Shown: positions 6,678 to 45,438 of the stretch, piece after piece
Position numbering within the stretch: the stretch's first letter is position 1
Layout of the letters: every line of letters starts with the position of its first letter
Position numbers and translations under genes: made by a program
NCBI GenBank assembly: GCA_963782055.1
Contig: CAWAIF010000003.1
Location: forward strand, 1,568,001 to 1,632,000
Length of the DNA stretch: 64,000 bases
Source: an uncultured delta proteobacterium
Lineage (GTDB): Bacteria > Myxococcota_A > Polyangia > Polyangiales > Polyangiaceae
Reading direction: 5' to 3'
Notes under the pieces: model-generated
What the model saw: the letters and a program-made list of their open reading frames with translations, nothing else
The model's database searches: none
What the model was told of the DNA's origin: nothing

Positions 6678-6683
6678 CCTCCC

Positions 6684-9788: not shown

Positions 9789-9792
9789 TCGC

Positions 9793-11438: not shown

Positions 11439-11442
<4 letters not shown>
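9793..11442 (+). CDS. Membrane sensor histidine kinase (Cache-like periplasmic domain)
   Basis: Two TMs; H-box IAHEVRNSL; N-box NLVSNA; DNGPG; FEPFVTGK; GIGLA. Confidence 0.92.
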
Positions 11443-12818
<1,376 letters not shown>

Positions 12819-23302: not shown

Positions 23303-24934
23303 TCAGGCCCGGCCGAGCCCGGCGGGGGATGGCTCGATCGACCCTTCCGTCACCGCCTTCAGGCGCTCCACCCACGGCGCGACGTCCACCCCCGCCATCG
23401 AGGCGCTTGGCTCCCCCGCGAACGGGACCGTCGCGATCCTCGCCTCCGGCGCGCGCGCGATCACGGCCTTCACGCGAGGGTCGACGCGCACCAGCTCCTC
23501 GCGCAGGAGCGACTCCGACGTGTCGAGCGGCCACGCCCAGACGGCGACTGACCCGAGCGCCCCGACCAGCGCCGCCCGCGCGCCCGGCGGCGGAGCCGGC
23601 GCCGCCCCCGCGGGCAGCGCGCACACGGCGAGGGTCAGGCCCGGGCCACGCGCCCAGAGCGCCGCCAGCTTCGCCAGGTTGCGCTGCGCGGCGACGCGCC
23701 GCTTGCCGATGGCGGCGAGCGAGCGGGGCGCGGAAAAGACCAGATCCACCTCGTGCGCGTCGGCGACGTGCGCGTGAGGCTGCGCCACGGCGGCGATGAC
23801 GAGGTCCGCCTCGGTGTCGTCGCCGTCCTCGCCGGCGCGCGCGGCCCGCAGCAGCTCCGTCACGCGCTGCGTGAGGCCGAGCGACGCCAGGGCATCCATC
23901 GCCCGGAGGCGCAGGGCGCGCTCGTCCTCGGCGCTCGAGTCCAGCGCGGCGTCCGCGTCCACCAGCGCCGCGCCGAGACCGACGCCGAGCGCGCGGAACC
24001 TGTCGCGAAGCGTGTCCACCTCCTGGCGCGAGGGCGGCTCGCCCAGCATGCGCCGCGCGCGATGGCCGATGCGCTCCGCGAAGGCGGCGAAGACCGAGAG
24101 CGGCGGCGCCGCGCCCTCGGCGATCTCCTTGCCGTTCGCCGCGAGATCGCGCGCGGCCTCCGCCTGCCCGGCGTCCAGCGCGACCTCCGCCAGGAACGCG
24201 AGCGCGCGCGCCCGTCCGTGGCGATCCCCGAGGCGCGTGGCGAGGAGCTCCTGCGCCCCCAGGTGCGCCCGCGCCGCATCCAGGTCGCCGCGCGCGAGGG
24301 CGAGGGAGCCGAGCTGGCCGCGGGCGATGGCCTCGCTCTCCACCAGGCCGAGCCGCCGCGCCAGCTCCGCCGCGTGCTCCAGCACGCTCGCCGCCGCGCC
24401 CTGCGCGCCGAGCACGCCGTAGAGCGTGCCCATGGAGTTGAGGACGCGCACGCGCTCGGGGAGGAGGTCGTCGGAGGCGGCGACGGCCACGGCGAACGCG
24501 TCGAGCGCCTGCTCCGGCTGCCCCGCCGCGACGTACGCGGCGCCGAGGACGGTGCTCGCGGTGGCGCGCACGAGCGCGTCCTCGCCCGCCGCCCGCCCCA
24601 CCGCCGCGATCCGCGCGATGAGCTCGGGGAGGTGCTGGCGTGGACCGCGGCGCGTCTCGGCCACGAGCGACTCGCATCGCGCGAGCGCGCTCGCCTGCGC
24701 CTCGCCGCACGCGGCGAACGCCTCGGCGGCGGCGGAGAGCTCGGTCCCCGCGAGGTGGAGCTGCCCGGTGCGAAGCGCCAGCTCCCCGCGCGCGAAGCGC
24801 AGGGCGGCGCGCTCCGCGGCCGAGGAGACGACGCCCTCGAGGCGATCCATCTCCGCGCGCGCCCCCTCGGGCGCGCCGCCGAGCAGGAGGCGCTCCACCG
24901 TGGAGTGCGGGGCGAGGGGCGCGAGCGGCCTCAC
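23303..24934 (-). CDS. TPR (MalT-like helical repeat) protein with an unassigned C-terminal alpha/beta domain
   Basis: RVLNSMGTLYGVLG, AIARGQLGSLALARGDLDAAR, ARALAFLAEVALDAG repeats; GTGA coupling to the S8 gene. Confidence 0.8.
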   Translation of the reverse strand: MRPLAPLAPHSTVERLLLGGAPEGARAEMDRLEGVVSSAAERAALRFARGELALRTGQLHLAGTELSAAAEAFAACGEAQASALARCESLVAETRRGPRQHLPELIARIAAVGRAAGEDALVRATASTVLGAAYVAAGQPEQALDAFAVAVAASDDLLPERVRVLNSMGTLYGVLGAQGAAASVLEHAAELARRLGLVESEAIARGQLGSLALARGDLDAARAHLGAQELLATRLGDRHGRARALAFLAEVALDAGQAEAARDLAANGKEIAEGAAPPLSVFAAFAERIGHRARRMLGEPPSRQEVDTLRDRFRALGVGLGAALVDADAALDSSAEDERALRLRAMDALASLGLTQRVTELLRAARAGEDGDDTEADLVIAAVAQPHAHVADAHEVDLVFSAPRSLAAIGKRRVAAQRNLAKLAALWARGPGLTLAVCALPAGAAPAPPPGARAALVGALGSVAVWAWPLDTSESLLREELVRVDPRVKAVIARAPEARIATVPFAGEPSASMAGVDVAPWVERLKAVTEGSIEPSPAGLGRA

Positions 24935-25734
24935 GACGCCGCCCTCGCTTCCTGCGCCGCGCGCCAGCGCGCCGCGAGCGCGTGCAGCGACGCCTTGGTC
25001 ACGTCGATGGAGAGCCCGGGGCGCGCGGCCCGGATGCGCGCGACGTGCGCGGCCACGTGCGGGGTCGCGAAGGACGTGCCGGTCCAGCGGCGCTCGCCGC
25101 CGCCGAGCGCCGGCGCGAGCACGTTCTCCCCGGGCGCCACGATCTCGTAGTCGGCGGTGAGCTGCGTGCGAAGCCCCTCCGCGTCGTCGAACGCCGCGCG
25201 CCCCACGCCGATGAGCGACTTGAACTTCCCCGGGTAGGTCCGGAACGCGCCCAGGTTGGGCCCGGAGGCGACGAGCACGACGCCGCGCGTGTACGCCGCG
25301 TCGGCGAGCTCGTACAGGTCCACGATGCCGGGGTAGTCCCCCGGCCGGAGCGGTGCGCTCCGCGGCACGTCGATGCCCAGGCTGAGGTTGACCACGTCGT
25401 AGCGCTCCACGACGCAGTGCCGGATCGCCGCCAGCAGGAGCTCGCGCGTGCACTTGCCGCCCGCGTCGAGCACGCGCACGTCGGCGATCTCGGCCTCCGG
25501 GACGAGGCGGTGGATGATGCCCGCGCAGGCCGTGCCGTGACCGCTCGCGTCGCCACCCTCGCAGGGCTCCGCGCGCGGCTTCCCCTCGCCGGCGCGCATG
25601 GCGAGGTGGCGCATGTTGGCCGCGCGGAGCCACGGGTGGGAAGGGTCGACGCCGGAGTCGACGATGGCGACGCGCACGCCGCGGCCGGACGCCACGATCG
25701 GCACGTCGGCGCCGAAGTCCGCCGGCGCGGTCAC
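24931..25734 (-). CDS. Cytoplasmic S8 (subtilisin-like) serine peptidase
   Basis: Triad motifs VDSGV, GHGTAC, GTSFATP; NLSLG; ASGPN; no signal peptide or prodomain. Confidence 0.92.
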   Translation of the reverse strand: MTAPADFGADVPIVASGRGVRVAIVDSGVDPSHPWLRAANMRHLAMRAGEGKPRAEPCEGGDASGHGTACAGIIHRLVPEAEIADVRVLDAGGKCTRELLLAAIRHCVVERYDVVNLSLGIDVPRSAPLRPGDYPGIVDLYELADAAYTRGVVLVASGPNLGAFRTYPGKFKSLIGVGRAAFDDAEGLRTQLTADYEIVAPGENVLAPALGGGERRWTGTSFATPHVAAHVARIRAARPGLSIDVTKASLHALAARWRAAQEARAAS

Positions 25735-26519
25735 GGGGTGTCCCCTTCGCCGCCGTGCGCGACGCGCTCCAGCCCGCGGAAGTACGCGTCGAAGCGCTCC
25801 AGCACGTCCACGACGAGCTGGGCGTCGTCGGGCCCGCGCGACGCCACGCGGCCGCAGAGCAGGGCGAGGCGCAGGCTGGTGCGGTACGCGGGGTCGAGGC
25901 GCATCGCCCGCACGTGCCGCTCGAGCTGCGCGCCGAGGCGCGTGTCCAGATCGCCGCCGAGCACGTCGGGGAGTGCGCGCGCGAAGAGCTCGAAGAGCGC
26001 CCGCTCGGTCCGGAAGCTCTCCACGGTGAGGGAGAGCACGTCGCCGAGCTGCTGGGCCAGGCGTACCTCGCGATCGCCCGACGCCTCGGCGCGCAGGAGC
26101 ATCACCCCGCCGACCACGCCGCGGCCGACGCGGATGGGCGCGAGGACACAGGAGCGCGGCGAGGACGCGACGGCGTCACGCAGGGGAGCGAGGGCGGGGT
26201 CGTCCGGCTCCAGCGACAGCGCGTGCGCGTCGCCGCCGGCGAGCAGGTACGCGAAGGGCGTCCCCACCGCGAGGAGCTGGAGGTCCAGCTCGCGGAAGCC
26301 TTCGGGCGTGGCGACGACCGGCACGTGGAGGCGGCCGAACGCCTCCAGCTCCAGCGCGACGAGCGCCTCGTCGCACGGCACCGCGATGCACGCGAACTGG
26401 AGCTGCTCGCGCAGGCCCCGCACGCGCGCCTCCACGCTCGCGACGAGCGACGACGACTCGATCGTCGAGAGCAGGTCGCGCAGGCGGGCGACGAAGGCGT
26501 TCTGGGGCTCGCGCGGCAT
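25731..26519 (-). CDS. GAF-like domain protein with a C-terminal helical domain
   Basis: SCVLAPIRVGRGVVGGVMLLR...DREVRLAQQLG (GAF C-terminal signature); no output enzyme domain; coupled to the S8 gene. Confidence 0.7.
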   Translation of the reverse strand: MPREPQNAFVARLRDLLSTIESSSLVASVEARVRGLREQLQFACIAVPCDEALVALELEAFGRLHVPVVATPEGFRELDLQLLAVGTPFAYLLAGGDAHALSLEPDDPALAPLRDAVASSPRSCVLAPIRVGRGVVGGVMLLRAEASGDREVRLAQQLGDVLSLTVESFRTERALFELFARALPDVLGGDLDTRLGAQLERHVRAMRLDPAYRTSLRLALLCGRVASRGPDDAQLVVDVLERFDAYFRGLERVAHGGEGDTP

Positions 26520-26530
26520 GGCCACCGAGT

Positions 26531-28423
26531 CTACTCCGCCACCGCGGCGGGCGCGCCCGGCGCGGGCGCCGTGTCCGGCGCGCGCAGCGCGTCCGCCAGG
26601 AGCTCGCGGTAGGGCGCGCACGTGGCGCGGAGCTCCTCGTGCGTCCCGCGGGCGACGATGCGACCGCCGTCGAGCAGCACGTTGAAGGTGGCGTCGAGCA
26701 GGTGGGGCGCGTGCGTCACGACGATGCAGGTGCGGCCCGAGGCCGCGGCCTTCACCCGGCGCAGGAGCGCCTCGGCGTCGGCGCTCGGGAGGGCCGCCTC
26801 CGGCTCGTCGAGCAGGAGCACAGGGGGCTTGCGCAGCACCATGCGAGCCAGGGCGAGACGGCGGATCTCCCCGCCGGAGAGGTTGCTCTGCGCGGCGCGG
26901 AAGGAGTAGTCGAGGTCGCGCTCGCTCCCCGTCCCGAACTGCCCGTCCAGGCCGGCGACGCGCAGCGCCTCCTCCAGCTCGGTGTCGTCCGGTGTACGGT
27001 CCAGCCCGAGCGTGAGGTTCTCGCGCAGGGAGCGGTCGAGCAGCGCCGAGTGCTGACCCAGCACGCCGAAGACGCGCGGAAGGTCGTCGGGCTCGAGGTC
27101 ACGAACGTCGACGCCGTCCACCGTGATCGCCCCCGCCGTCGGGTCGACGCCGCGGAGCAGCAAGCGGAGGAGGGTGGACTTGCCCGAGCCGCTCTTGCCG
27201 CAGATGCCCACGACGGCGCCGGCCGGGATGTCGAGCGTGACGCCGTCGAGCTGCGGCTTCGGCGATCCCTCGAAGGCGAAGCTCACCGCGTCGAAGCGCA
27301 CGTCGCCGCGCAGGGCGGCGGGGTCGGCGTGGCGCGCGCCCTCGCGGCGCGGCGGCGAGGCGGGCAGGGAGAGCACGCGCGCGCTGGCCTCCAGCATCGG
27401 GCGGCGCTCGGTGAAGCCGATGCGCAGGCCGTCCAGGCCGTCGAGGCGCGCCATGAGGAGGGGCACGAGCAGCACCAGCTTGGCCACGACGCCCGGCGGC
27501 ATCTGTCCGTGCGCGCCGTGGACGCTCTGCAGCACGAGCACGACGAGCAGCGGCGAGAGCGCGGTGAAGGCGCTCTTGATCTGGCCGGTGGAGGCGAGGG
27601 CTGCGGCGTGTCTGGACCGGCCGTCCGCGCACTCCTGGGCGACCTCCGCGAACTCGTCGACCGCCGCGTCGCGCGCGCCGAGCAGCCGGAGCTCCTCGCT
27701 TCGCTCGAGCGTCTCCCCGAGGCGCCCGAACAGCGCGGCGTCGGCGTGCTGCATGGAGGCGTAGGCGGCCGACACGCGCCGGATCGCGCGCTGCGAGAGC
27801 AGCCGTGACAGGACGAAGATGGCGACCCCTCCGCCGAGCGCGAGCCACGCCCCCGACGCGACGAGGTCGTAGCCCAGCACGGCGAGGCTGAAGACGATCT
27901 GCGGCAGGTTGGCCAGCGCCGCGACGAGGAACTCGGCGACCCCGGGCGCGGTGCTCGCGATGGTCACCCGCACCAGGTCCGCTCCCCGCGCGCCCGGGCG
28001 GCCGCGCGGCGTCCTGGACGCCGCGGGAGCAAGGCGCTCGCGATCGGCGGCGGAGGCGCGGAGCGCCGCCCGGAGCATCGCCACCCGGAGCGCCGCGGCG
28101 ACGCGTGCCCCCAGCGTGGTCGAGAGGCGCATGGAGTACATCGTGAGGCCGACGGAGACGAGCGTGGCCAGCACCGCCGCGCCCACGGCCGCCGCGGGGC
28201 CCCCGACGTGGAGCCAGTCGGCGAAGGCGCCGCTCAGGCCGTGCCCCTCTCGCGCCGGCGCGCCCGGCGTCATCACCGCGTCGATGGCGGTCCCGACGAG
28301 CGCCGGCGAGACGCTGGAGGCAGACCCCGCAAGGGCCGCGACCCCGACGATGCCGAGCGCGCCGAGCGCGAGCTTGCCCCGGAAATCAGCCGCCGCGCGG
28401 GTGACGATGAGTCGTAAGGTCAC
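26531..28423 (-). CDS. ABC exporter, fused permease plus ATPase (ABCB type, no C39 domain); start approximate
   Basis: TM region, then GKSGSGKST, LSGGE, LLLDEP, VTH. Confidence 0.9.
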   Translation of the reverse strand: MTLRLIVTRAAADFRGKLALGALGIVGVAALAGSASSVSPALVGTAIDAVMTPGAPAREGHGLSGAFADWLHVGGPAAAVGAAVLATLVSVGLTMYSMRLSTTLGARVAAALRVAMLRAALRASAADRERLAPAASRTPRGRPGARGADLVRVTIASTAPGVAEFLVAALANLPQIVFSLAVLGYDLVASGAWLALGGGVAIFVLSRLLSQRAIRRVSAAYASMQHADAALFGRLGETLERSEELRLLGARDAAVDEFAEVAQECADGRSRHAAALASTGQIKSAFTALSPLLVVLVLQSVHGAHGQMPPGVVAKLVLLVPLLMARLDGLDGLRIGFTERRPMLEASARVLSLPASPPRREGARHADPAALRGDVRFDAVSFAFEGSPKPQLDGVTLDIPAGAVVGICGKSGSGKSTLLRLLLRGVDPTAGAITVDGVDVRDLEPDDLPRVFGVLGQHSALLDRSLRENLTLGLDRTPDDTELEEALRVAGLDGQFGTGSERDLDYSFRAAQSNLSGGEIRRLALARMVLRKPPVLLLDEPEAALPSADAEALLRRVKAAASGRTCIVVTHAPHLLDATFNVLLDGGRIVARGTHEELRATCAPYRELLADALRAPDTAPAPGAPAAVAE

Positions 28424-28498
28424 AAGAGTCCTGCCCAGAGCCCTCGGGCCGTCGGTGACCGCGCACCACAAAGCCTCTCGCGATGCGCTCGCGACCGA

Positions 28499-28507
28499 TG
28501 GTAACCT
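28499..28507 (+). promoter_or_regulatory. Possible extended -10 element in the divergent intergenic region
   Basis: TG-G-TAACCT about 33 bp upstream of ATG 28541; RBS GGAGGAG at 28526-28532. Confidence 0.3.
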
Positions 28508-28540
28508 ATCCAGTCCTTGTCTGCTGGAGGAGCGAAGACA

Positions 28541-28864
28541 ATGAGCGAGGACACGTCTCCCATCTTGGTGGTCCCCTTGCCTGGAGGGCGCGTCGCGCGC
28601 GTCCCCCTGGCCGAGCTCGAGCGGTTCGTCGCGGCCGGCGCGAAGCTCTCGCACACCGGCGAAGAGGAGGCGGCGGCGACCGACCCGGACGGGGACGTGA
28701 CGGCGCACCACCTCAACGTGGACGCCTCCACCGGCACGAGCACCTGGCATACCGACTACGAGTACGGCCCGTGCAGCTATACGGACGAATCCGGCTTTCC
28801 GCACTACGGCTTCGCGTGGCACTGCCACCCCACCGGCAGCGAGTACGCCGAGGTCCTTCGCTGA
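28541..28864 (+). CDS. 107-aa small protein, leader/core precursor-like (DVTAH motif)
   Basis: Strong RBS; GC3-rich codons; acidic linker EEEAAATDPDGDVTAH followed by a His/Tyr/Trp/Cys-rich C-terminal half. Confidence 0.85.
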   Translation: MSEDTSPILVVPLPGGRVARVPLAELERFVAAGAKLSHTGEEEAAATDPDGDVTAHHLNVDASTGTSTWHTDYEYGPCSYTDESGFPHYGFAWHCHPTGSEYAEVLR

Positions 28865-28865
28865 C

Positions 28866-30044
28866 ATGAACGCGGCCAGAACTCTCGCCTCCGGCGCGGC
28901 GCTCGCCACGTTCGTCGCGGCTGGTCCCGGGTGTCTCTCGACCGTCCACCCGCTCGACCAGGCGGGGACGGTCCAGATCTACTCCGACGTCAGCGGGCCG
29001 CTCTTCGCCGCCACGCCCGGCGGGTCGACGCGCCAGCGGTACTCCGAGAACGTGACGCTGGAGCTGACCGAGGACGGGCAGCCCGCGCACAACGCCTTCG
29101 TCGACGTGAAGGTGTCCTCGGCCGCGCTGACGCTCCATGCCACCGACGACACCTGCAAGTTCGACGGCGGCTTCTTCCGCTGCTCCGCCGACGCGCAGGG
29201 GTTCGCCTACTTCCGGGTGGAGGCCGCGTCCAACTGGTCCACCACCGACCCGGCGAAGGTGGAGGCCACCTGGTCGGACAGGTCCGCGACGCTGAATGTC
29301 ACCGTGTTCCCGCCGGGCCTGCCGTCCAACGTGACCGCGTTCTCGCTGAGCGTGGGAGGCCTCGCGGCCGACCAGCACGTGCCCCCGACCTTCGCTCCCT
29401 TCTCGTGCACGTACAAGCCGGCGGACCCGCAGGCCCCCTGGTCGGCGAAGCCGCGCTCGAGGCAGGTCGTCGTCCACGCGGTTGCCGCCGCCGGCGATCC
29501 CGACGTCCTCACCAACGCGCCCGTCGTACTCCAGTCGCCGAGCACCGACGTCCAGTTCTCCACGGCGCCCGATTGCACGCAGCGGTCGTCGCAGCTCACG
29601 GTCTTGCTCGACGCGGCAGGTAGCTCGTCCCCCGCCTACGCGTGCTTCAGCGATCTCGGCGGGACCGTCGAGATCCAGGCGGTCTCCGGCGAGGTGGCGG
29701 CGACCGCGTCGTCGAAGCAGCAGGTCATCGTCGACGCCGAGCCGTACTTCCTGGGCGTCACCGCCATCAACCCGGTGGCGCACGTCGATCAATCGAACAA
29801 CCTGTTCCAGATCGAGGCGCGCGACGCTCTCGGTCAGCGGCTCGCCCTCTCCGTCGGCGTGTCGGCGGCCGGCACCGGATCGATCTCTCTCTCCCAGGCC
29901 ACCTACAAGCTCGCCGACGAATCCGCCGACCCCACCGTCGTGACCGCGATCCCCAAGACCACCGGCGCGGTCCACCTCCACGTCGCGCCGTCGCTCGCGC
30001 CCAGCCTGGGCTGCGACTCCCCAGACATCGACATCCAACCGTGA
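28866..30044 (+). CDS. Predicted lipoprotein, beta-rich (Ig-like repeats possible)
   Basis: Signal ending in GPGC; Thr/Ser/Val-rich beta-strand pattern; 1-bp gap after the peptide gene. Confidence 0.75.
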   Translation: MNAARTLASGAALATFVAAGPGCLSTVHPLDQAGTVQIYSDVSGPLFAATPGGSTRQRYSENVTLELTEDGQPAHNAFVDVKVSSAALTLHATDDTCKFDGGFFRCSADAQGFAYFRVEAASNWSTTDPAKVEATWSDRSATLNVTVFPPGLPSNVTAFSLSVGGLAADQHVPPTFAPFSCTYKPADPQAPWSAKPRSRQVVVHAVAAAGDPDVLTNAPVVLQSPSTDVQFSTAPDCTQRSSQLTVLLDAAGSSSPAYACFSDLGGTVEIQAVSGEVAATASSKQQVIVDAEPYFLGVTAINPVAHVDQSNNLFQIEARDALGQRLALSVGVSAAGTGSISLSQATYKLADESADPTVVTAIPKTTGAVHLHVAPSLAPSLGCDSPDIDIQP

Positions 30045-32020
30045 TTTCCAGAACACTCCTTCGAAGCCTCCTCGCCTGCACCGTCGGCCTGGCCGCCGTG
30101 GTGTGGTCTCCGGCCCGCGCGCGCGCGCAGTCCCAGCCCGCGGCGGCGGTTCGCGTCGAGGCCGGCGCGGACGTGCACGTCGCCGCCGGCATCAAGACGG
30201 ACGCCACGCCGATGACGGTGGTCACCACGGGCGCGGCGCCTCCCTCGGCGACGTCCGCACCGGTGGAGATCTTCCCCCTCGCCGCGCACGCGTGGCTCCA
30301 CACGCTCGATCTCGGCGACGCCGACTACAAGCGCATCGACGCCGCGCGCAGGAGCCTCCCCGGCTCGTGGTTCTGTCGCACGCCGGCCGGGGCCGCCGCC
30401 TGCTCCGCGCAGGGGCACGTGGGCCCCGCGGAGGGCTACGACGACGCGATCCTCCTCTCCATCCGCCACATGCTCCCCTGGGCGGCGAGCGCGATCACCG
30501 TGTACAACCGGCGGCAAGGTCTGCTCTACGATCCCCGGCTGGTCGGCCACGCGGTGAACAACCTCTCCCGCTGGAAGGGGGAGGGGATCCCGCGCCCGGC
30601 GCCGCCGCCCATGCCCGCGCCGCCGCGCGCGCACGCCGGAAAGCAGGACGTGTGTCCGCCGGTGCCGATGCCGTCGCTCCCGCCGAGCGACGGCGAGCTG
30701 CAGCTCGTCTTCCGCTGGCCCACGCCGGCCGAGACTGGCGACTTCCGGTACATCGCGGTGGTGGACGAGTGCAACAACGCGGTCGTGACCCGCTTCGCGC
30801 GGCAGTTCTACGTCCCGGCGGAGGTGGAGGCGACCGACAGCTGCACGGCGGCCGGCGTAGGCCGTGGCCCGCTCAAGCTGCTGCGCGGCGGCACGACCCT
30901 CCACGTCACCGCGTTCAACCTCGACGCGCCGACACGCGGCAACGTCCTGTCGTCCACGTACCGCGTGACCGTCCCGAACATGGAGACCGACGCCGACGGT
31001 CACCCCGCGCCGGTGCTCGTGCCGGACTTCTCGCGGGACGACCTGCGCCTCGACTGCAGCGCCACGGAGGCGCCGAAGGCGAAGCCGAAGCCCGCGAGCG
31101 ACAAGTGCCCCGCGGGCCCGCCGCCGCGCGCCGGTCACGCCATGGCCGACGAGTCCTTCGTCATCGGGCCGGAGCCGCTGCGCACCGGGCGGTGCCGCAT
31201 CGTCTTCGACTCGCCGAGGATCTCCCGCCTCTCCGGCGCGCCGCTGCTCCTGCACGTCACGCTGGAGCGCGTGGACGTCGCGGCCGACGCGGGCAACCGC
31301 GGCCTCGTCCACGCCTCGTGGCTGGTCTCGCCCGGGCCGGGGCGGTCCTTCGTGCTGCCGCCGCTCGGGGCGATCGAAGGCGACTCCCGGCTGCGCCTGA
31401 CGGTGTCGTCGGACCCGGCCGGCGCCTCCGGGAAGGCCATCGTCTTCACCGACGCGCTGCGCGGCGTGAAGCACGCGACGGGCACCACCGCCAGCGGCTT
31501 CCGCCGGGACATCGCCTCTTCCACGATCACCACCGCGGCGCTCTGCGGCGGGTGGGACTTCCGCACCATCGAGGAGACCGGCTCCTGCTTCCGCGCCTAC
31601 ATCACGGTGCCGGTGATGCTCGCGACGTTCCAGATGACGCGCGCGCCCTGGGAAGAGAAGCCCATCATCGACCCCTCGGTGCCAGGTGGCATCGGCGTGG
31701 CCCTCGCGTTCGACCGCTACGACCCGGCGAAGCAGCAGGCGTTCCCGCTCTCCTTGCAGATCGGCGGCGCCTTCGAGAAGCTGACCGACAGCAAGAACGG
31801 CATCCTCGCCTACGTCGGGTTGATGCCCTCGCTGCCCGTCCTCGGCAAGGGGGGCACGACGACGTCCATCGGCCTGCTCGCCGGGCTAGGGCTCACCTAC
31901 ATCATGGACTCCGCCGGCCCCAACGAGGGCTTCAAGCCGGCGCTCTTCGTCGCGGTGGTGATCGGCACAGGCCAGTTCGTCCTCAAGGCGACCGGCGCGA
32001 ACACCGTCACGAGCGAGTGA
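30041..32020 (+). CDS. Secreted protein with C-terminal amphipathic beta-strands (possible outer-membrane anchor)
   Basis: Signal peptide ...WSPARARA; paired Cys; Gly/hydrophobic alternating strands in the last ~130 aa; GTGA overlap. Confidence 0.75.
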   Translation: MISRTLLRSLLACTVGLAAVVWSPARARAQSQPAAAVRVEAGADVHVAAGIKTDATPMTVVTTGAAPPSATSAPVEIFPLAAHAWLHTLDLGDADYKRIDAARRSLPGSWFCRTPAGAAACSAQGHVGPAEGYDDAILLSIRHMLPWAASAITVYNRRQGLLYDPRLVGHAVNNLSRWKGEGIPRPAPPPMPAPPRAHAGKQDVCPPVPMPSLPPSDGELQLVFRWPTPAETGDFRYIAVVDECNNAVVTRFARQFYVPAEVEATDSCTAAGVGRGPLKLLRGGTTLHVTAFNLDAPTRGNVLSSTYRVTVPNMETDADGHPAPVLVPDFSRDDLRLDCSATEAPKAKPKPASDKCPAGPPPRAGHAMADESFVIGPEPLRTGRCRIVFDSPRISRLSGAPLLLHVTLERVDVAADAGNRGLVHASWLVSPGPGRSFVLPPLGAIEGDSRLRLTVSSDPAGASGKAIVFTDALRGVKHATGTTASGFRRDIASSTITTAALCGGWDFRTIEETGSCFRAYITVPVMLATFQMTRAPWEEKPIIDPSVPGGIGVALAFDRYDPAKQQAFPLSLQIGGAFEKLTDSKNGILAYVGLMPSLPVLGKGGTTTSIGLLAGLGLTYIMDSAGPNEGFKPALFVAVVIGTGQFVLKATGANTVTSE

Positions 32021-32076
32021 GCGAGGCGCCCTTGGGGGCCGTGGTCAGCCGCGCGATGAAGTAGGATGGTCGTCCG

Positions 32077-35000
32077 ATGACGACAATCGCGGAAGAGGCG
32101 CACGACATCGGTGCGTTGCTGCGACGCGCTGCGGTCGAGCGCGATCCGGTGCCGTCGCTCCTGCTCGCGCTGCGGTGGCGTCGTGCCGCCGGCCCCGAGG
32201 ACAGGCAGGCCGTCGAGGCGCGCGTCGTCGACGCGGCGACGGCCTCGTACGAGGGACTCGCGGGCCTGGTCCGGGCCATTCACATCTACTGGCCGGAGGG
32301 ACTGCTGGCGCCGCCGGTGCGTGCCTCCCTCCACGTCGCGCTGGAGGCGGGGCGGTTCGAGGCGCACGAGCTGTTCCACGTGCTCTCCCCGCTGCTCGCG
32401 GCGGAGGACCGCTTCGAGGAGCTGCTCGCGCACTCGGAGAGGCTGGGGCTCGGCGCGCGGCTGCGCCTGGCGACGCTGTGCCAGCGGCTGGCGACCGCGG
32501 TGCAGGTGTTCGGGCCGGAGGCCTTCGTCCCGGGCGAGCGCGAGCGCGCGTTCGACACCGTGCTCGAGCGGCTCTTCGAGGACCGCGACGCCGGCGTGGC
32601 GCTGCGCGCCGCGTGGGCGGTCGGCGTCCGGGCCGCGGCGTCCAAGCCCTGGCGCGGCCGCCTCGCCGCCCTCTCGCGCGACGCTTCGCCGCGGCGCAAG
32701 CGCCGGGCCCTGGCGGCGCGCACCGCGCTCTGGGTGCTCGGGGAGGACGCCTGGGACTACGAGCGGGAGCTCACGTCTGGGCTGGGCAAGACCGACCCGT
32801 ACGCGCGCGCGACGGCCCTGCTCGCGATGCGGTTCGGCGTCCGCATCGCCCCGGGCACGGTGGCGGCGATGGCGGAGCAGCTCGTGTCGCGGTCCGCGCC
32901 GGTGGAGGTGCTCGTCGCGGCGCTCGAGCTCGCGCGCGTGCACCCTGACGAGGCGCTCCGCACGCACGTCGCCGAGCGCGCGGAGGTCGAGCGGCCTCCG
33001 GCGGAGCTCGCGATCCTGCTCCGGCGGACCGCGCCCGGAGCGCCGGGCGGCGCGGCCGGCATCGTGGAGCTCGGCGACGCGCTCGTGGAAGCCTCCGCCG
33101 TGTCGCCTGGCGAGGCATCGCGCGCGGCGGCGGCGCTCGCGCGGCGACTCTCGCGCGGGATCAGCGGCGACGCCGAGGAGCAGGAGGCCTGCGAGCGGGT
33201 GCTCTTCGACGGGACGCTCTTTCGCGACGCGCTCGTCATCGGGGCCCGTACGCCCGCCGCCCGTCGCGAGGCGTACGAGGTGTGGGTGGGCGCGGTGGCC
33301 GCGTGCCGTGAGGCGCGCCTCGCCGCGCTGGGTGAGGGGGATGCGCGGGAGCGGACCGCGGCGTGGCGGCGCGCGGCCAGGGCGCTCGACGCGTCCCCGC
33401 GCGGCATCCGGCGGGACGGGGCGCCGGACGCGGAGGCCCGCAGCCCGGTGCGCCGGGACGCGGCGCGCGTCCGCCTCGCGAGCGCCGCGCGCCTGGCCGG
33501 CCGCGCCGACTCGATGGAGGAGCGTCCGGCGATCGGCGCCCTCCTCGTCGCCGCCGACATCGAGGCCGTGGTCGCGCCGAGCGTCTTCGGGGACGTGCTG
33601 GCGGCGCTGCTCTCGTCGCGCTCGCCGCGCGCGCTCCGCCACGCGCTCGATGGCTGCCCCGCGGGTGCGCCCCTGCACGACGCGCTCACGGCCCTGGAGG
33701 CGCTCCGCGCGCTCGCCGAGCCCCGGGGGAAGAAGGCGCCGGCCGTGGATCGCGACACGCTCGCGCAGGCGACGTGGCACCTCGCGCAGGCGTCGCTCGC
33801 GGTCACGGGGGATCGTGCCGCACCGGCCGCGGCTGCGCCGCTCGCGCTGGACGCCGCCGTGAGCCTCTCCCTGGCGCCACCGTCGTCGCCGGGCGCCGTG
33901 CTCGCCGCATGGAGCGCCGCCGCGCGTGCGTGCATCCGCCTGCGCGAGGGGGTGGCAGAGGACGCAGGCGCGCCGCCGCCGTCCTTCCCGAACGCCGCGC
34001 GCGTCGAGAAGGCAATCGTCTCGCTCTTCGAGCCTCAGTCCAGGCGCGAGCGCTCCCTCAAGGACGAGGCGGCGCTGGAGGTGCTCGCCTCCGTCGTCCC
34101 GCCCGCGCTGGCGTCGCTCCCGCACCTGCTCGGCCGGGTGCTGCGCGCGCGCAAGGCGCCGGCGGCTCGCCCGCGCCGTGACCCGTTCGCGCCGTCGAAG
34201 GTCATCGGCGACTTCGTCGTGGAGAAGAAGCTCGGCGCCGGCGGGATGGGCGCGTGCCTGCTGGTTCGCCGCCGGGCGGCGCCGCGGGGCGCCGGGTGCT
34301 TCGTGCTCAAGGTCCCCCTGAAGGGGGATGCCTTCGCCCAGTGCGCCTTCGTGGACGAGGCGCAGACCCTCATCACGCTGTCGCGCGCCCCCCACCCGGG
34401 CGTGGTGCGCTTCCTCGGCTACATGACGTGCGGCTACCGCCTGCCGTACCTGATCATGCAGCACATCGAGGGCAGGCCGCTCGACGGCGTGCTGAAGAAG
34501 GGACCGCTGCCCCTGGGTGCGGCGCTCCGCGATGGCGCGCGGCTCGCCGATGCGCTCGCGCACTGCCACGCGAGCGGTGTCACGCACCACGACGTCAAGC
34601 CCGCCAACGTCATCTCCGGTCCGGAGGGCGCGGTGCTCGTGGACTTCGGCATCGCCGGAGCCGGGAAGGACGGCGCGGGGACGCCCATGTACATGTCGCC
34701 GGAGCGCTTCGACCGCACCAATGCGCCGGAGCTCGCGCCCGCCGCCGACGTCTTCGCCCTGGGCTGCATGGTGCACGAGCTCTGGACCGGCACGCCGCTG
34801 ATGAACGTGCCCATCGGCGCGCACGAGGCGCCGGAGATCCCCTCCACCATCGTCGAGTTGAGCCGCGAGGTCGGGCGGGGCGAGGCGAGCATGATGGGCG
34901 TCCAGCTCGTCTTCGGCGTGCTCGCGCGGACGCACGCACTCCTCGTGCGGCGTCTCGCTCGCGGGCTGGATGGTGCGCCCGCCGCGCTGCGGGCGCCGCT

Positions 35001-35118
35001 CGGCACCCTCGTCGAGGCGATGGTGGCGACCGACCCGCGCACACGCCCGACCGCGGCGTTCGCGGCCGCCGAGCTCGGGCGCCTGGCGTCGGTCGTGGAG
35101 CGGGCGGTCACGGTATAG
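32077..35118 (+). CDS. Ser/Thr protein kinase with a long N-terminal HEAT/ARM-like helical region and a C-terminal kinase domain
   Basis: LGAGGMG; VLK; FVDEA; HHDVKPAN; DFG; GTPMYMSPE; DVFALG; no TM seen. Confidence 0.9.
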   Translation: MTTIAEEAHDIGALLRRAAVERDPVPSLLLALRWRRAAGPEDRQAVEARVVDAATASYEGLAGLVRAIHIYWPEGLLAPPVRASLHVALEAGRFEAHELFHVLSPLLAAEDRFEELLAHSERLGLGARLRLATLCQRLATAVQVFGPEAFVPGERERAFDTVLERLFEDRDAGVALRAAWAVGVRAAASKPWRGRLAALSRDASPRRKRRALAARTALWVLGEDAWDYERELTSGLGKTDPYARATALLAMRFGVRIAPGTVAAMAEQLVSRSAPVEVLVAALELARVHPDEALRTHVAERAEVERPPAELAILLRRTAPGAPGGAAGIVELGDALVEASAVSPGEASRAAAALARRLSRGISGDAEEQEACERVLFDGTLFRDALVIGARTPAARREAYEVWVGAVAACREARLAALGEGDARERTAAWRRAARALDASPRGIRRDGAPDAEARSPVRRDAARVRLASAARLAGRADSMEERPAIGALLVAADIEAVVAPSVFGDVLAALLSSRSPRALRHALDGCPAGAPLHDALTALEALRALAEPRGKKAPAVDRDTLAQATWHLAQASLAVTGDRAAPAAAAPLALDAAVSLSLAPPSSPGAVLAAWSAAARACIRLREGVAEDAGAPPPSFPNAARVEKAIVSLFEPQSRRERSLKDEAALEVLASVVPPALASLPHLLGRVLRARKAPAARPRRDPFAPSKVIGDFVVEKKLGAGGMGACLLVRRRAAPRGAGCFVLKVPLKGDAFAQCAFVDEAQTLITLSRAPHPGVVRFLGYMTCGYRLPYLIMQHIEGRPLDGVLKKGPLPLGAALRDGARLADALAHCHASGVTHHDVKPANVISGPEGAVLVDFGIAGAGKDGAGTPMYMSPERFDRTNAPELAPAADVFALGCMVHELWTGTPLMNVPIGAHEAPEIPSTIVELSREVGRGEASMMGVQLVFGVLARTHALLVRRLARGLDGAPAALRAPLGTLVEAMVATDPRTRPTAAFAAAELGRLASVVERAVTV

Positions 35119-35126
35119 TGGCTCGA

Positions 35127-36362
35127 ATGGCCGTCGAGACGTCCACAGAAGAGCGGGTCGAGAGGGCGCCGGACGTGCCCGTGGCCCACGAGCGTGGCGG
35201 GCGGGCCGACCTCGCGGCGCTGCGCGACCGCCGCGCGCTCGCGATGATGCCCGTGGTGGTCTTCGGCGCGATGCTCCCGTTCGTCGCCCGCGCGACCGAG
35301 TCGCTCTGGATGGACGCTTCCCCGGTCGCGAAGGCGCGGCTCCTCGTCCGGCTCTGCGTGAGCTTCGTCCTGCTCGGCTGCTACCCGCTGGTTCTCGTCC
35401 TCGTGCGCCTCGGAGTCACCGACGTGACGGCGAGCCAGCACCGCTGGCTTCTCCGGGTGTACCCGGCTGTCACCACCCTGTGGCAGTCCCTGGTGGCGCT
35501 GGACGCGTTCGTACTGATCGCGTGGCCCCGGCTGGTCTCCATGCCGAGCTTCGCCGCCGATCTGACCATCTCCATCGCTGCGTGCGGGCTCATCCCGTTC
35601 GTGCAGCACCACATGACCTTCTTCTATGGCTTCGACGTCGGCACCCTCCTCCGCGCGCGCGCCCTGCTGGGCAAGGAGCCGAAGCTCGCGCGCGCTCCCC
35701 TGGACACGCTCGACTACAAGGTGTTGCAGCTCATCGCCAGGAGCGGCAGTGACGTGGCGAACGTGATGATCAACGACATGGGGATCGGCTTCCGCGATCT
35801 CATGCTTCGCCTGGCGAAGCTCGTGGCGCTCGGCTACCTGCACGTCGTCAAGGAGCTCCACGGCCCGCAGGTGGTCCTCTCCACGCTGGCCACCGACACG
35901 CTGGCGCTCCCGATATCGCTGTTCACGTGGGACACCGACGATCGCGAGCTGCTCGGCGAGCTCGCGAGCGCGCGGCTGTCGCTGGAGGCGCGCGAGCCGC
36001 AGAAGGTCGTGGTGGCGTGCGCGCGCTCGTGCGAGCGGCTCCTGCGCGGCGGACTGGCGACCGTCGAGCCCAGGATCACGCACGTGGGCAACAAGGAGCT
36101 CTCGAAGGCGACGCTGGGAGAGCTCGTGGGCGCCTGTCGGCAGCACAGGATCATCGGTCGCTTCGAGGACGGCATTTTCTCGGCGATCAACGAGCGCAGG
36201 AAGAAGATCCACGCGCTCGAAGGGGAGGCGCCCATCGACGACCAGGACGCCTTCGTGCTCTACACGCTGACCGAGATCGTCGCGCGTGATCTGCTCACGC
36301 GCCGGCGCGGGCGCGGGCGTCGCGCCGGCGACGACCCCGCAGCCGCGCCTCCCACTCAGTAG
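35127..36362 (+). CDS. Membrane protein: about 4 TM, winged HTH, HEPN/DUF4145-like domain
   Basis: Hydrophobic helices; LDYKVLQLIA...RLAKLVALGYL (wHTH); ACARSCERLL...TLGELV...INERRKKIH (Rx4H). Confidence 0.7.
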   Translation: MAVETSTEERVERAPDVPVAHERGGRADLAALRDRRALAMMPVVVFGAMLPFVARATESLWMDASPVAKARLLVRLCVSFVLLGCYPLVLVLVRLGVTDVTASQHRWLLRVYPAVTTLWQSLVALDAFVLIAWPRLVSMPSFAADLTISIAACGLIPFVQHHMTFFYGFDVGTLLRARALLGKEPKLARAPLDTLDYKVLQLIARSGSDVANVMINDMGIGFRDLMLRLAKLVALGYLHVVKELHGPQVVLSTLATDTLALPISLFTWDTDDRELLGELASARLSLEAREPQKVVVACARSCERLLRGGLATVEPRITHVGNKELSKATLGELVGACRQHRIIGRFEDGIFSAINERRKKIHALEGEAPIDDQDAFVLYTLTEIVARDLLTRRRGRGRRAGDDPAAAPPTQ

Positions 36363-39515: not shown

Positions 39516-42293
39516 TCAAGGACAGTCGCAGAGGGGATCGCGTCGCGGGTCGCAGTCGCAGTCGCCGCGCCTCGCGCGCCGGTCCTCGATCGGCTCGACG
39601 GGCGCCTCGCCGGGCGGCTCGAGGATGTCGGGCGCCCGAGACGGCGCGCGGGAGAGGCCGGTCTCGGTGAATCGCTCGGCGCAGAGGGCGAAGGGGAGAT
39701 CCATGGCGCCCACGCGGCATACGAGGCCGTCGGCGACGTCGCCGTGCAGCTCGACGTGCCCCGCGGCGTCGAAGGCTACGCTGCCGCCGGGGACCGGCGC
39801 GACGGCGAAGCGGCGGGCCGCCGACGTGACGTCGAGCACCTGCAGCGCGTCCCCTCCGGTCACCGCGACGCTGCCATCCGCGGACAGCGCGACCGACGTG
39901 GCGTGCAGATCGTCGAACGCCGCCACGGCCTTGCCCTTGCGCAGGTCGCGCACGTCCAGCCAGTTGTGCTGCGCGATCGCCACGACCTCGCCGTCGGCGG
40001 AGGTGGCCAGGGGCCCGCACCCGTCCATCTGGCGGATGGAGAAGGCGTCGGCGTCGCGCTTCTCCTCTGCGTCCGGGGGCTCCAGCCGGAAGCGCTGCGT
40101 CACTCCGTCGCCGTTCCGGCGCTGTTTCGGCCGCGCCAGGAGCGCGGGCACGACGCGCATCGGGGAGGCGCCGGTGCGGATCCCCTCCGCCTGGGAGACG
40201 ACCACCGTCCCGTCGGCGAGGAACGCGGCGTGCGCCGCGAACTCGTCGTAGGGGAGCTTACCCACCCGCGCGCCCGTGGAGGTGTCGAAGACGCCGAGCC
40301 ACGACGGGCTGTGGCTCACGGTGAGCATCACCCGCGCCCCGTCCCGCGAGAGCAGCGGCGCGTGCCGCTCGAAGCCGTCGCCGAACCTGGAGTGCTCCTT
40401 CGGGAGCACCACGTGGGCGAGCTCGCGGCCGGAGGCGAGGTCGAAGGTCCCCAGCTCCTCGCCGTCCATCCACGCCACCACCTTGTGGCCACCGGCGCTG
40501 ACGGCGATGGGGCCGCGCGCCGCCTTCACGTCGAATCGCGCGATCTCCTGCGCGTCGTCCGACGCGAAGGTGCGCATGGTGCCGTCCTCCAGCAGGGCGA
40601 CCACCCTCTTCCCGTCGGGGGTCATCACCGCATCGAGCGTCGCCGGCCCGGGCGCGATCCGCAGCGGCGCGCGGGATCCGTCGGTGGTGACGACCATCAC
40701 GTCCGAGGCGCCGGCGGTCGTAGACCAGCGCCAGGGTGGTGCGCCGACGAGGGCGATCGCCACCCGCCCGTCGCCGGACAGCCGCACGTCCGAGGCCGGC
40801 TTGCGCTCCGCGGTCGAGCGCTCCTCGCCCGTCGCGAGATCACCCACGCGCAGCTGGCCGTCGTCATCGACCCAGGCGACCCGGGCCGCCCGCGGGTCAA
40901 GCAGGAAGCGGTCGTGTCGCGCGAGGTGAAGTGTGACCTTCCCCGAGGGGAGGGCGACGAAGCGTCGCTCCTCCGCGTGCTTTCCCGCCCGCGCCAGCAT
41001 CGACAGATAGGCGTGTCCGATCAGCTCGACGTTCGAGAACCGCCCCTCGCCGAGGTCGAGGGTCACGTCGCCGGTCCTGGTGTCGATGACGAGCACGTGG
41101 TAAGCGCGCTCCTGCCCGACGACGACGACCGCGAGCGAGCCGTCATCGGAGACCACCGCGTCGACGCAGTAGCGGCCGGCCACCTTCCGCCGTCGCTCGT
41201 GGTCGTCGCGGAGGATGTGCAGCACGTGGTCGGGCGTCAGCCGCATGGAGACCTTGCCGTCCGCGGTGGTCGCCTGGCACAACGGCTCCGCCTCCCGTCG
41301 GCTGCGGTGATGGCGCGTTCCGACGCCCCCGCCGCTCTGCAGCAGGGCCAGCGCGCCCGAGGTTCCGGACTCCCGTCCGGCCGCTGGAGCGTTCTTCGGC
41401 GCGGTCGCGCTGGGTCGGAGCGACCACGTCTCCGGCCCGGCGCCCACATCGAACTGAAGCGCGTCGCCGCCCGGTGAGAACGTCACGCCAGATATCCGCG
41501 AGGCGACCACCAGACGCCGCAGCTCGCGGCCGTCGGTCAGGTCCCAGAGTCGGACGGTCCCGTCTGCGGAGCCGGAGGCGATGCGCCGCCCGTCCGGCGA
41601 GAAGGCGACGTCGGAGACGTAGGCCGTGTGACCGCGCAGGCGGAGCCTCTCCTGCATCGAGGTGGCGTCGACGACGGCGATCGCGTCATCCGCCTCCACC
41701 GCGAGCAGTGAGCCGTCGGGCGACCACGCGAGGATCTCACCGTACCGCTCGGCGCGGACGGTCACCTCCGCGCGCGCGTGCGCGGCCCGCTCGTAGGCGG
41801 TGAGCGTCCGGTCGAGCAAGCGCTGCGCCTCCGCCGCGTCGCCCGCCGCATGCGCCCTGGCGGCGAGCTCGAGCAGGACGGAGGGGGCCTCCGTCCCGCG
41901 CCCCGTGGCGACGAGGTCGCGCGCCCGCTTCGCGGCGGCCTGCGCGGCAGCCGCCGCCGTCCGCTCCGCGTCGATGGCGTCTGCGAGGCTCGTCGCCGCC
42001 TCGCGTCGCCCCACCTCGGCGAGGGTGGAGACCTGAAGGTCCTCCATCGCCCGCGCGTGTGACGGGCAGGCGCGCTCGTCGGCGGCGATCACGCGCAGCG
42101 CGCGGTCGAGGCGGCCCCGCGCGAGCAACGCCTGCACGCGAGGCCGGGGCGGAGCGACGCGGGCGCATGGGTCCGGCGCGCGCGCTGCCGTCTTTGGCGG
42201 GACCGCCCGAGGCGTCGACGCGCACGCCGCCACCACCCACAAGCCCGTCGCGAGCGCGAGACGTCGCACGATCCGCGAAGATACCACGTTCAC
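39516..42293 (-). CDS. WD40-repeat lipoprotein with an N-terminal TPR-like region
   Basis: Lipobox [36 protein letters not shown]; many degenerate blades; start approximate. Confidence 0.85.
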
Positions 42294-42315
42294 CGCTCTC
42301 CGCTCCGCGGCTACC

Positions 42316-45132: not shown

Positions 45133-45141
45133 GCGCGCGCG

Positions 45142-45435
45142 TCAGTTGGTGAGGCGGATCCCGCGCTTGCGCAGGCACTGATCGTTGACGTTCTCGTAGC
45201 CCTCCGGGCACTGGCCCTGCGCGTCGGGCTCGGGCGGCGGCCCGGCGTCCTCCTCGGGGGCCGGGGTCGCCACCGCGGTGTCGCTCGGCTCGGGCGTGGC
45301 GGAGGGCGTCGGGCTCACCGCGTGGGTACCGGCGTCGCCGGCGCACGCAACGACCGCGAGCGCGGGCAGGAGGAAGGAAACGGCGAGCCAGGATTCCACA
45401 GTCCGGAGTATCGGCGGCCTCCGCGTCTCCAGCAA
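45142..45435 (-). CDS. Small lipoprotein, hypothetical (start uncertain, possibly ~45399)
   Basis: AVVAC lipobox; Pro/Glu linker; CPEGYENVNDQC. Confidence 0.6.
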   Translation of the reverse strand: MLETRRPPILRTVESWLAVSFLLPALAVVACAGDAGTHAVSPTPSATPEPSDTAVATPAPEEDAGPPPEPDAQGQCPEGYENVNDQCLRKRGIRLTN

Positions 45436-45438
45436 GAC

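Follow-up and report, generated by a model that had tools for sequence, protein, structure and literature searches.

The DNA analysed here, a 64,000-nucleotide stretch (the window) of a contig from an uncultured member of the Polyangiaceae, contains nine genes arranged as two divergent arms around a short intergenic region. The left arm encodes an ABC exporter, a GAF protein, an S8 subtilisin and a TPR protein. The right arm encodes a small His-rich protein with the motif DVTAH (the peptide), a lipoprotein, a Sec-exported β-strand protein of 659 aa (the barrel protein, after its predicted fold), a Ser/Thr kinase protein and a transmembrane (TM) protein (Table 1). Genome comparison shows that seven of these genes, those for the TPR protein, S8 protease, GAF protein, ABC exporter, peptide, lipoprotein and barrel protein, are one conserved system in soil-dwelling myxobacteria. 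All nine open reading frames (ORFs) are present, with GC at third codon positions of 0.91–0.97 and codon-position GC typical of genes, and a codon model trained partly on the same genes independently calls each of them. The ORF and codon-model calls bear out the gene set, strands and gaps of the original prediction, which had been made from the sequence alone; reading outward, the gaps are 11, −4 and −4 bp from the ABC gene and 1, −4, 56 and 8 bp from the peptide gene.

Pfam recognizes S8, GAF, ABC (without a C39 domain) and kinase domains in the locus, and TPR below its cut-off. The peptide, the lipoprotein, the 659-aa protein and the TM protein have no Pfam or NCBIfam family match. None of the nine proteins matched a tailoring-enzyme family in Pfam or NCBIfam, and the radical-SAM motif is absent from the window and from 86 loci scanned, in agreement with the earlier statement that no tailoring enzyme for ribosomally made peptides with post-translational modifications (RiPPs) is encoded here. 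By profile, the peptide, lipoprotein, barrel, GAF, TPR and TM proteins and the S8 orthologue are each single copy in the genome.

The distribution of the two arms was followed with the peptide and GAF protein as markers. Among 301 genomes of the family, which are kin and not independent samples, 58 carry both markers, five the peptide only, four GAF only and 234 neither; among 151 genomes of the order, both markers are in the same three. A search of the phylum (4/401 genomes) led to a second myxobacterial lineage, Kofleriaceae by the source labels of its homologues; 4 of 147 genomes in that order have GAF. There, a same-strand operon reads barrel–lipoprotein–GAF–S8–TPR–ABC–peptide (G396, G668 and G669; partial in G667), and its peptide (hhalign 88%), TPR (94%), GAF and S8 proteins are homologous to those of the window. 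The original prediction would have been undermined by arms that do not co-occur elsewhere; the markers occur together in 58 of the 301 family genomes, and this co-occurrence and the second-lineage operon support the claim that the two arms belong together.

Their spacing varies. The arms stand back to back in the window and in loci L002, L003 and L155, lie within about 20 kb of each other in G144, G681, G700 and G777, and are 47–185 kb apart in 14 complete Sorangium chromosomes, where the divergent orientation is kept. GAF, S8 and TPR genes are contiguous in 27 of the 28 loci fetched from 44 GAF-positive genomes, and the 28th locus stops at a contig edge. Of 47 peptide-bearing genomes, 44 have the GAF orthologue and 45 the ABC membrane-domain orthologue. 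On the other side, the lipoprotein gene follows the peptide gene in 45/45 genome loci with room for it and in 24/25 metagenome loci, and the 659-aa gene is present in 41/41 genome loci with room and 5/5 metagenome loci.

Genomes with one marker fall into a few groups. The complete genome G760, which scored as GAF only, has its GAF, S8 and TPR genes in pieces, no ABC gene, no peptide gene and a 40-aa barrel remnant; both arms have decayed together in it. The other three GAF-only genomes hold a distant GAF–TPR pair. Of the five peptide-only genomes, two have other left-arm genes, two are G714 and G801, and the last, G457 (98% complete, 420 contigs), keeps an intact lipoprotein–barrel–peptide operon in an assembly in which no GAF, S8, ABC or TPR orthologue was found. 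Neither marker occurs in any of six congeners that were sampled, so the compact copy in the window's genome may have been acquired; GC gives no compositional sign of recent transfer.

Table 1. Genes and features of the divergent locus, with positions in the window
Feature	Position	Strand	Status
TPR protein, 543 aa	23303-24934	-	core
S8 subtilisin, 267 aa	24931-25734	-	core
GAF protein, 262 aa	25731-26519	-	core
ABC exporter, 630 aa	26531-28423	-	core
Divergent intergenic region, 117 bp	28424-28540	.	sequence
His-rich small protein, 107 aa, DVTAH at 52-56	28541-28864	+	core
Lipoprotein, 392 aa	28866-30044	+	core
Sec-exported β-strand protein, 659 aa	30041-32020	+	core
Ser/Thr kinase protein, 1013 aa	32077-35118	+	accessory
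TM protein, 411 aa, 4 TM segments	35127-36362	+	probably outside the system
Kinase protein with R-x4-H helical domain and Sel1 repeats, 1031 aa	36356-39451	-	possible accessory, beyond the range of the original prediction

A conserved unit of all nine genes is ruled out by the patchy occurrence of the kinase gene (its N-terminal part in 2/49 genomes) and the TM gene (10/50 genomes; 1/151 genomes of the order, the window's own). The window's kinase has a Pfam Pkinase domain at residues 714–994 with the motifs K745, HHD and DFG, preceded by an Ala/Arg-rich region of no known family. That N-terminal part was found directly downstream of the TPR gene, in the left arm, in both genomes that have it, so this kinase travels with the system, only in the window's lineage. 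Elsewhere the neighbour is a different protein, with kinase, FHA-like and R-x4-H domains and no family match beyond the kinase. Of the 40 peptide loci that leave enough space upstream, 24 contain it. It is divergent from the peptide gene in most Polyangiaceae-type loci, adjoins the second-lineage operon (G396, G668 and G669) and is in the same two genomes of the order as the system; it is missing from the window's genome and from the two loci closest to the window's. Examples are L013:6467-9604 (-), L130:1808-4807 (-) and L129:18457 onward (+). Homology between the N-terminus of the window's kinase and these proteins was considered and rejected, as they share nothing beyond the kinase domain. 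The kinase slot is therefore real and is filled by different proteins. The original prediction had listed the kinase as a component; a kinase is usually linked, as it implied, but elsewhere it is a different protein, and the window's own kinase moves between arms. We propose a regulatory role for the linked Ser/Thr kinase, the kinase itself being exchangeable.

The TM protein is probably a separate neighbour outside the system. In none of its 10 loci does it adjoin a core gene, and the claim that it is a system member was dropped. All 10 of these genomes bear the system by construction of the sample, and a loose link remains compatible with these counts. Its C-terminal motif R357-x4-H362 recurs as R-x4-H in 8/8 close homologues, and searches of Pfam, PADLOC, PHROG and PDB gave no match. 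The labels "HEAT-like", "wHTH" and "HEPN" given earlier to the kinase and TM proteins found no family match; the TM protein has four TM segments and R-x4-H. The RNase output built on the HEPN label is not supported; that label comes from the R-x4-H motif alone. A single family for all R-x4-H domains was also tried and not adopted, the likeness being weak (hhalign 3% and 29% among three sets, which are unlike the TM protein). A further R-x4-H protein, with P-loop-like and WD40 parts, is encoded directly upstream of the second-lineage operon at L129:14230-18372 (-) and L130:4936-9117 (+). The gene just beyond the TM gene in the window may be another accessory: Pfam matches kinase and Sel1 in its product, its N-terminal domain is single copy in the genome, and a homologue with other C-terminal repeats lies directly behind the barrel gene in L003, with a second copy elsewhere there.

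The original prediction described both arms as tightly coupled. The gaps are as it gave them, but the coupling was overstated, because a TAnnnT hexamer lies 7–9 nt ahead of the ATG in three genes, those for the GAF, kinase and TM proteins (for the kinase gene, TAGGAT at 32062-32067). In a sampled half of the main contig (G000:C3), TAnnnT lies 5–10 nt before the ATG in 103/562 unit-first genes versus 2/184 overlapping genes. The hexamer is a hint only, as for the GAF and TM genes it overlaps the stop codon of the upstream gene; the three hexamers do coincide with module borders in other genomes. In the host genome, the TAnnnT bias likely reflects widespread leaderless transcription. The intergenic region itself has a TAACCT hexamer at 28502-28507 and GGAGGAG ahead of the peptide ATG; no conserved motif was found in it, and its sequence is not kept in L002 or L003. 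A comparison of the Sorangium peptide operon with RNA runs gave contig matches only, in which intergenic parts were also covered, and these matches are no evidence of transcription.

The peptide has four parts: a hairpin-helix (residues 9–31), a variable linker, the DVTAH motif (52–56) and a 52-aa C-terminal part. One search returned 21 homologues, and homologue loci number 47 from genomes and 31 from metagenomes, in Sorangium, Polyangium, Byssovorax, Polyangiaceae and Myxococcales records. In 71 distinct homologues the junction motif is DVTAH in 41 and DVVAH in 16. Where the motif could be placed (66 sequences), the part from the motif His onward measures 52–54 aa and the N-terminal part 47–110 aa. 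The peptide has conserved Trp, His, Tyr and Cys residues; H38, H56, H70, C78, H94 and H96 are invariant in 43 locus-derived rows, with H70, H94 and H96 lying in the C-terminal part. Some forms carry signals instead of the motif. The G457 peptide starts with a hydrophobic signal that ends in Cys, without DVxAH anywhere, and P0035–P0037 are signal-bearing and also lack it. Second copies, orphan or tandem, occur at L141:9451-9891, L146:9272-9598, L147:6319-6627, L148:5801-6109, L149 and L151:7485-8192; one orphan copy, from a genome that also has the complete system, is a lipoprotein form. The C-terminal His hairpin (WH...H-x-HP) recurs as a mini-domain in the otherwise unrelated small proteins P0046, P0052 and P0056. 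A PDB sequence-profile search found nothing significant for the peptide, lipoprotein, barrel or TM protein, and the ESM Atlas held no usable match for the peptide or TM protein.

The left arm is a candidate processing and export unit. The S8 protease is minimal, with the triad D26/H66/S221, invariant in 24/24 sequences, and neither signal peptide nor propeptide. A hydrophobic N-terminus was seen in 0/28 sequences, with 7–37 residues preceding the catalytic Asp, and the protease is predicted to be cytoplasmic. Its top NCBIfam model is QhpE, at 105 bits against a cut-off of 165. The GAF protein matches Pfam GAF at the cut-off, followed by C-terminal helices and no output domain, and is likely a regulator of the protease. 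The TPR protein (Pfam TPR_MalT, E 2e-10, below cut-off), whose best PDB matches are the LGN/GPSM2 TPRs, likely serves the processing arm as a scaffold or as a chaperone for the precursor. Neither it nor the GAF protein matched a DNA-binding domain or HTH family in Pfam. The ABC exporter comprises six TM segments and a nucleotide-binding domain without C39 (Pfam, NCBIfam), and no HlyD adaptor or TolC is among the called genes of compact loci. Parts of this arm also occur alone. An S8–GAF pair adjoins a sigma factor and a kinase on a Miltoncostaea (Actinomycetota) plasmid (L135:11953-13346), a case that makes the pair a wider module than this system. Distant GAF–TPR pairs without S8, ABC or peptide lie at L142:6749-9170, L143 and L144:1-1203, all in one genus.

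Both partners of the peptide in the right arm appear to be envelope proteins. The lipoprotein has Cys23, with a conservation of at least 90%, and its AlphaFold2 (AF2) model, at a predicted local distance difference test score (pLDDT) of 91, shows three invasin/intimin-type Ig domains. Fold comparison matched it to FdeC (Z 11.4, root-mean-square deviation 12.6 over 281 aligned residues) and intimin (Z 10.8–11.0). The 659-aa protein was modelled without residues 105–216, with a pLDDT of 59 overall and mostly 77–91 in the C-terminal strands. Its middle domains are Ig-like, and its C-terminal region has six amphipathic strands (516–647), whose residues alternate between one hydrophobic and one Gly-rich face. 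These strands are predicted from the model to form an outer-membrane β-barrel part. The OprF, OmpA and NspA barrels score Z 5.8–6.5, within the range of common arrangements; no Foldseek match reached E ≤ 0.001, and the best Z was 7.9. A complex prediction of peptide 50–107, lipoprotein 25–392 and barrel protein 85–650 scored 0.00 and gave no verdict.

To these proteins we fit one reading, to which we give a probability of about 0.45: the S8 protease would cut the His-rich protein and the ABC exporter would deliver it to the lipoprotein and barrel protein, where it would probably serve as a metal-binding subunit. The peptide, lipoprotein and barrel protein would be made together. S8, GAF and TPR proteins would form a processing unit in which GAF gates and TPR holds the precursor, because the protease has no propeptide. 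The cut would fall within V-x-[AG]-[HY] at DVxAH, a pattern that fits the P4–P1 preference of subtilisins. The ABC exporter, with no HlyD or TolC partner in the locus, would free the product into the periplasm, where His70, His94 and His96 (with Cys78 in one lineage) would bind metal; the N-terminal hairpin-helix may remain on the product and serve for docking. The purpose, the weakest step, is probably a surface metal-sensing or scaffolding role. The fixed length and conservation of the C-terminal part behind a variable linker favour this reading. G457, in which no left-arm orthologue was found, and the other signal-bearing forms suggest that carrying the small protein over the inner membrane is what the left arm is for, and that the protein acts in the envelope. 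The earlier claim that S8 and the C39-less exporter mature and export the DVTAH protein gains support in the same way, as G457, without either, has a lipoprotein-type peptide. Doubtful as a whole is a fuller pathway, as yet undescribed, in which a ligand-gated cytoplasmic protease unit, GAF–S8–TPR, would clear a metal-binding, His-rich mini-protein for export by the ABC protein, and an oligomeric outer-membrane pore formed by the six-strand protein would, together with the Ig lipoprotein, display or secrete it under kinase/FHA control, a lipoprotein signal on the cargo being able to replace the inner-membrane arm.

Several observations weigh against cleavage, export and assembly in this form. 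The G457 case comes from one assembly, broken into 420 contigs. In G714 and G801 the ABC gene adjoins the peptide gene, S8 and TPR matches are only weak and GAF is absent, which counts against an obligatory protease, and GAF–S8 and GAF–TPR pairs are found without the peptide too. P0041 and P0044 have signal-like N-termini yet retain a motif-like stretch. Signal-bearing forms retain the hairpin-helix (twice in G457) and His38 is invariant; the N-terminal part is therefore not a simple throw-away leader and is probably structural. The barrel model is weak (pLDDT 59; barrel matches Z 5.8–7.9), and six strands are fewer than in the usual monomeric barrel. For the second-lineage lipoprotein and barrel protein, no homology to their counterparts in the window is detectable, only the layout being alike, and Cys78 is missing from the second-lineage peptide.

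Other readings draw on the same genes. In a signalling circuit, which we consider unlikely, the processed peptide would be released as a cell-density or developmental signal, caught at the surface by the pair of barrel protein and lipoprotein and read through TPR, GAF and kinase. TPR, GAF and kinase genes are indeed linked, the kinase-FHA gene showing the distribution given above, and several genomes have extra orphan peptide copies. However, a signal would be expected to be short and variable, unlike this strongly conserved part of 52–54 aa; neither TPR nor GAF matched a DNA-binding domain; and in G457, where TPR and GAF were not found, the envelope pair is kept and the peptide is lipid-anchored by prediction. 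Quite unlikely is a two-step secretion route like curli or Fap, fed by ABC and S8, in which an oligomeric six-strand outer-membrane pore and the lipoprotein would export or polymerise the small protein. The large protein ends in an amphipathic strand run in both lineages (in the second by eye), the peptide, lipoprotein and barrel genes are inseparable, and the loci have no TolC or HlyD; but the peptide cores have no repeats, with Q at 4.2% and N at 1.1%, in the AF2 model the strands close up as a small barrel of one monomer, and a single peptide gene is coupled 1:1 to its partners. We give similarly low credence to export of the small protein whole, as a folded two-part domain, with S8–GAF–TPR acting on the ABC exporter, the kinase or TPR. 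Conservation of the hairpin-helix and His38 equals that of the C-terminal part, and signal-bearing forms keep both, S8–GAF sits on an actinobacterial plasmid and GAF–TPR pairs exist without S8, and ABC stays with the peptide in G714 and G801 despite weak S8 orthologues. This view is countered by DVxAH itself, which is conserved at the linker end of ABC-type precursors and absent from G457 and P0035–P0037.

The conflict functions raised in the original prediction, kin discrimination or programmed death, together with anti-phage defence and a HEPN RNase output, are very improbable. Kinases with R-x4-H helical domains do recur beside the system, and the six sampled congeners without it hint at gain or loss. 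Against this, the system is mostly single copy and kept across whole genera, the TM-"HEPN" gene is unlinked elsewhere and the R-x4-H sets are weakly alike and unlike the TM protein, no viral contigs carrying GAF, the peptide or P0046 were found, and PADLOC returned only generic kinase, ATPase, subtilase and TPR matches. Among Sorangium strains, identity is 0.86–0.91 for the peptide, lipoprotein and barrel protein, equal to the 0.88–0.89 of S8 and GAF, and these values co-vary with rho 0.85–0.91; whole-protein identities over 14 Sorangium span 0.81–0.91, much as for the protease. The peptide and envelope proteins thus diverge no faster than the protease, and kin discrimination and programmed death are not supported. 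Least probable of all is a RiPP modified by an enzyme whose gene lies away from the locus in the same genome. The leader/core-like layout with conserved Trp, His, Tyr and Cys would suit one, and S8 leader peptidases, the cytoplasmic ElxP included, are presented as standard in RiPPs in the accessible part of PMC10885120. The operons are nevertheless compact and without an enzyme: the radical-SAM motif is missing from the window and the 86 loci, other enzyme classes being judged from gene calls and Pfam, and a lone PqqD gene lies about 240 kb away beside a lasso-protease-like ORF (G000:C3:1835906-1836507).

The closest described logic is that of qhp, the biogenesis route of quinohemoprotein amine dehydrogenase, in which, according to the accessible text of PMC7876137, QhpE removes 28 leader residues from the small subunit QhpC, which an ABC protein then exports to the periplasm. 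Shared with qhp are a signal-less S8 protease and a C39-less ABC exporter (QhpF in qhp) beside a small precursor, which would join two separately exported envelope proteins (PMC7876137). The window's system differs in its S8 protease, which falls below the QhpE cut-off (105 vs 165), in a peptide that matches no Pfam or NCBIfam model, and in the absence of a radical SAM QhpD, flavoprotein, haem or propeller subunit among the nine genes or the second-lineage operon; it adds GAF, TPR, the Ig lipoprotein, the barrel protein and kinases. RiPP clusters (class I lanthipeptides with LanP/LanT or ElxP; cyanobactins with PatA), as far as PMC10885120 was accessible, also combine S8, ABC and a precursor with a conserved junction motif. 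Here there is no tailoring enzyme, the conserved His-rich part is 52–54 aa, lipoprotein and barrel partners are obligatory and a lipoprotein form can replace the precursor. A fixed C-terminal part behind a motif does resemble a leader/core layout, but the N-terminal part is equally conserved and is kept in signal-bearing forms. DybA/MNIO clusters also have precursor members rerouted through the lipoprotein pathway, and differ in their MNIO enzyme and CPxCG motif; the accessible text on them makes no mention of a subtilisin, GAF or ABC transporter (PMC13056109).

Peptidase-containing ABC transporters (PCAT) and type I secretion are set apart by the exporter, here without C39, and by compact loci without HlyD or TolC. 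Curli (Csg) and Fap systems comprise a small secreted subunit, an outer-membrane β-strand protein and a lipoprotein or accessory protein, with a peptidase in Fap, Sec export and Q/N-rich repeats. The small subunit, β-strand protein, lipoprotein partner and, for Fap, the peptidase have counterparts here, whereas export is by ABC and the subunit is His-rich, without repeats (Q 4.2%, N 1.1%) and mostly without a signal peptide. RRNPP quorum sensing pairs a TPR receptor that has HTH or phosphatase output with a processed, exported peptide. A TPR protein and a predicted processed, exported peptide are present here too, but no HTH or phosphatase domain was detected, the peptide is long and conserved, and its partners belong to a Gram-negative envelope. 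TraA/TraB, which mediates myxobacterial kin recognition, is an operonic pair of surface protein and β-barrel with a strain-polymorphic receptor. The surface-protein and barrel pair in myxobacteria is the likeness; here whole-protein identities among strains show no polymorphism, no family match is shared, and a protease and exporter are linked.

The gene set thus lacks defining features of qhp, RiPP, PCAT/type I, RRNPP, curli/Fap and TraAB systems, the last three judged by their generally known features. NCBIfam and PADLOC matched no named system, which agrees with the failure of the original prediction to name one. No description of the gene set was found in the literature searched, and large comparative supplements and subscription journals could hold one; the accessible part of PMC7159879 describes other systems. 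The seven-gene envelope system is apparently undescribed.

Elsewhere in the window, positions 39516-49236 hold a run of large propeller/repeat protein genes, the first of which is WD40 by Pfam. Positions 4129-12818 hold a probable RND efflux operon, with a CusA-type transporter, an adaptor and an outer-membrane factor, and behind it a two-component pair.

Sorangium, Polyangium, their relatives and a second myxobacterial lineage share a conserved multi-gene envelope system, three of whose proteins have no known family and whose other parts reuse known chemistry such as subtilisin and an ABC exporter. Direct material for tests, in a culturable genus, comes from the cut site and metal site that are predicted and from two genomes, G457 as a natural bypass and G760 as a natural knockout. 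To our knowledge, the QhpE/QhpF route serves only an enzyme subunit that needs radical-SAM tailoring. If the reading proposed here is true, a qhp-like logic would also serve an unmodified protein and an outer-membrane partner.

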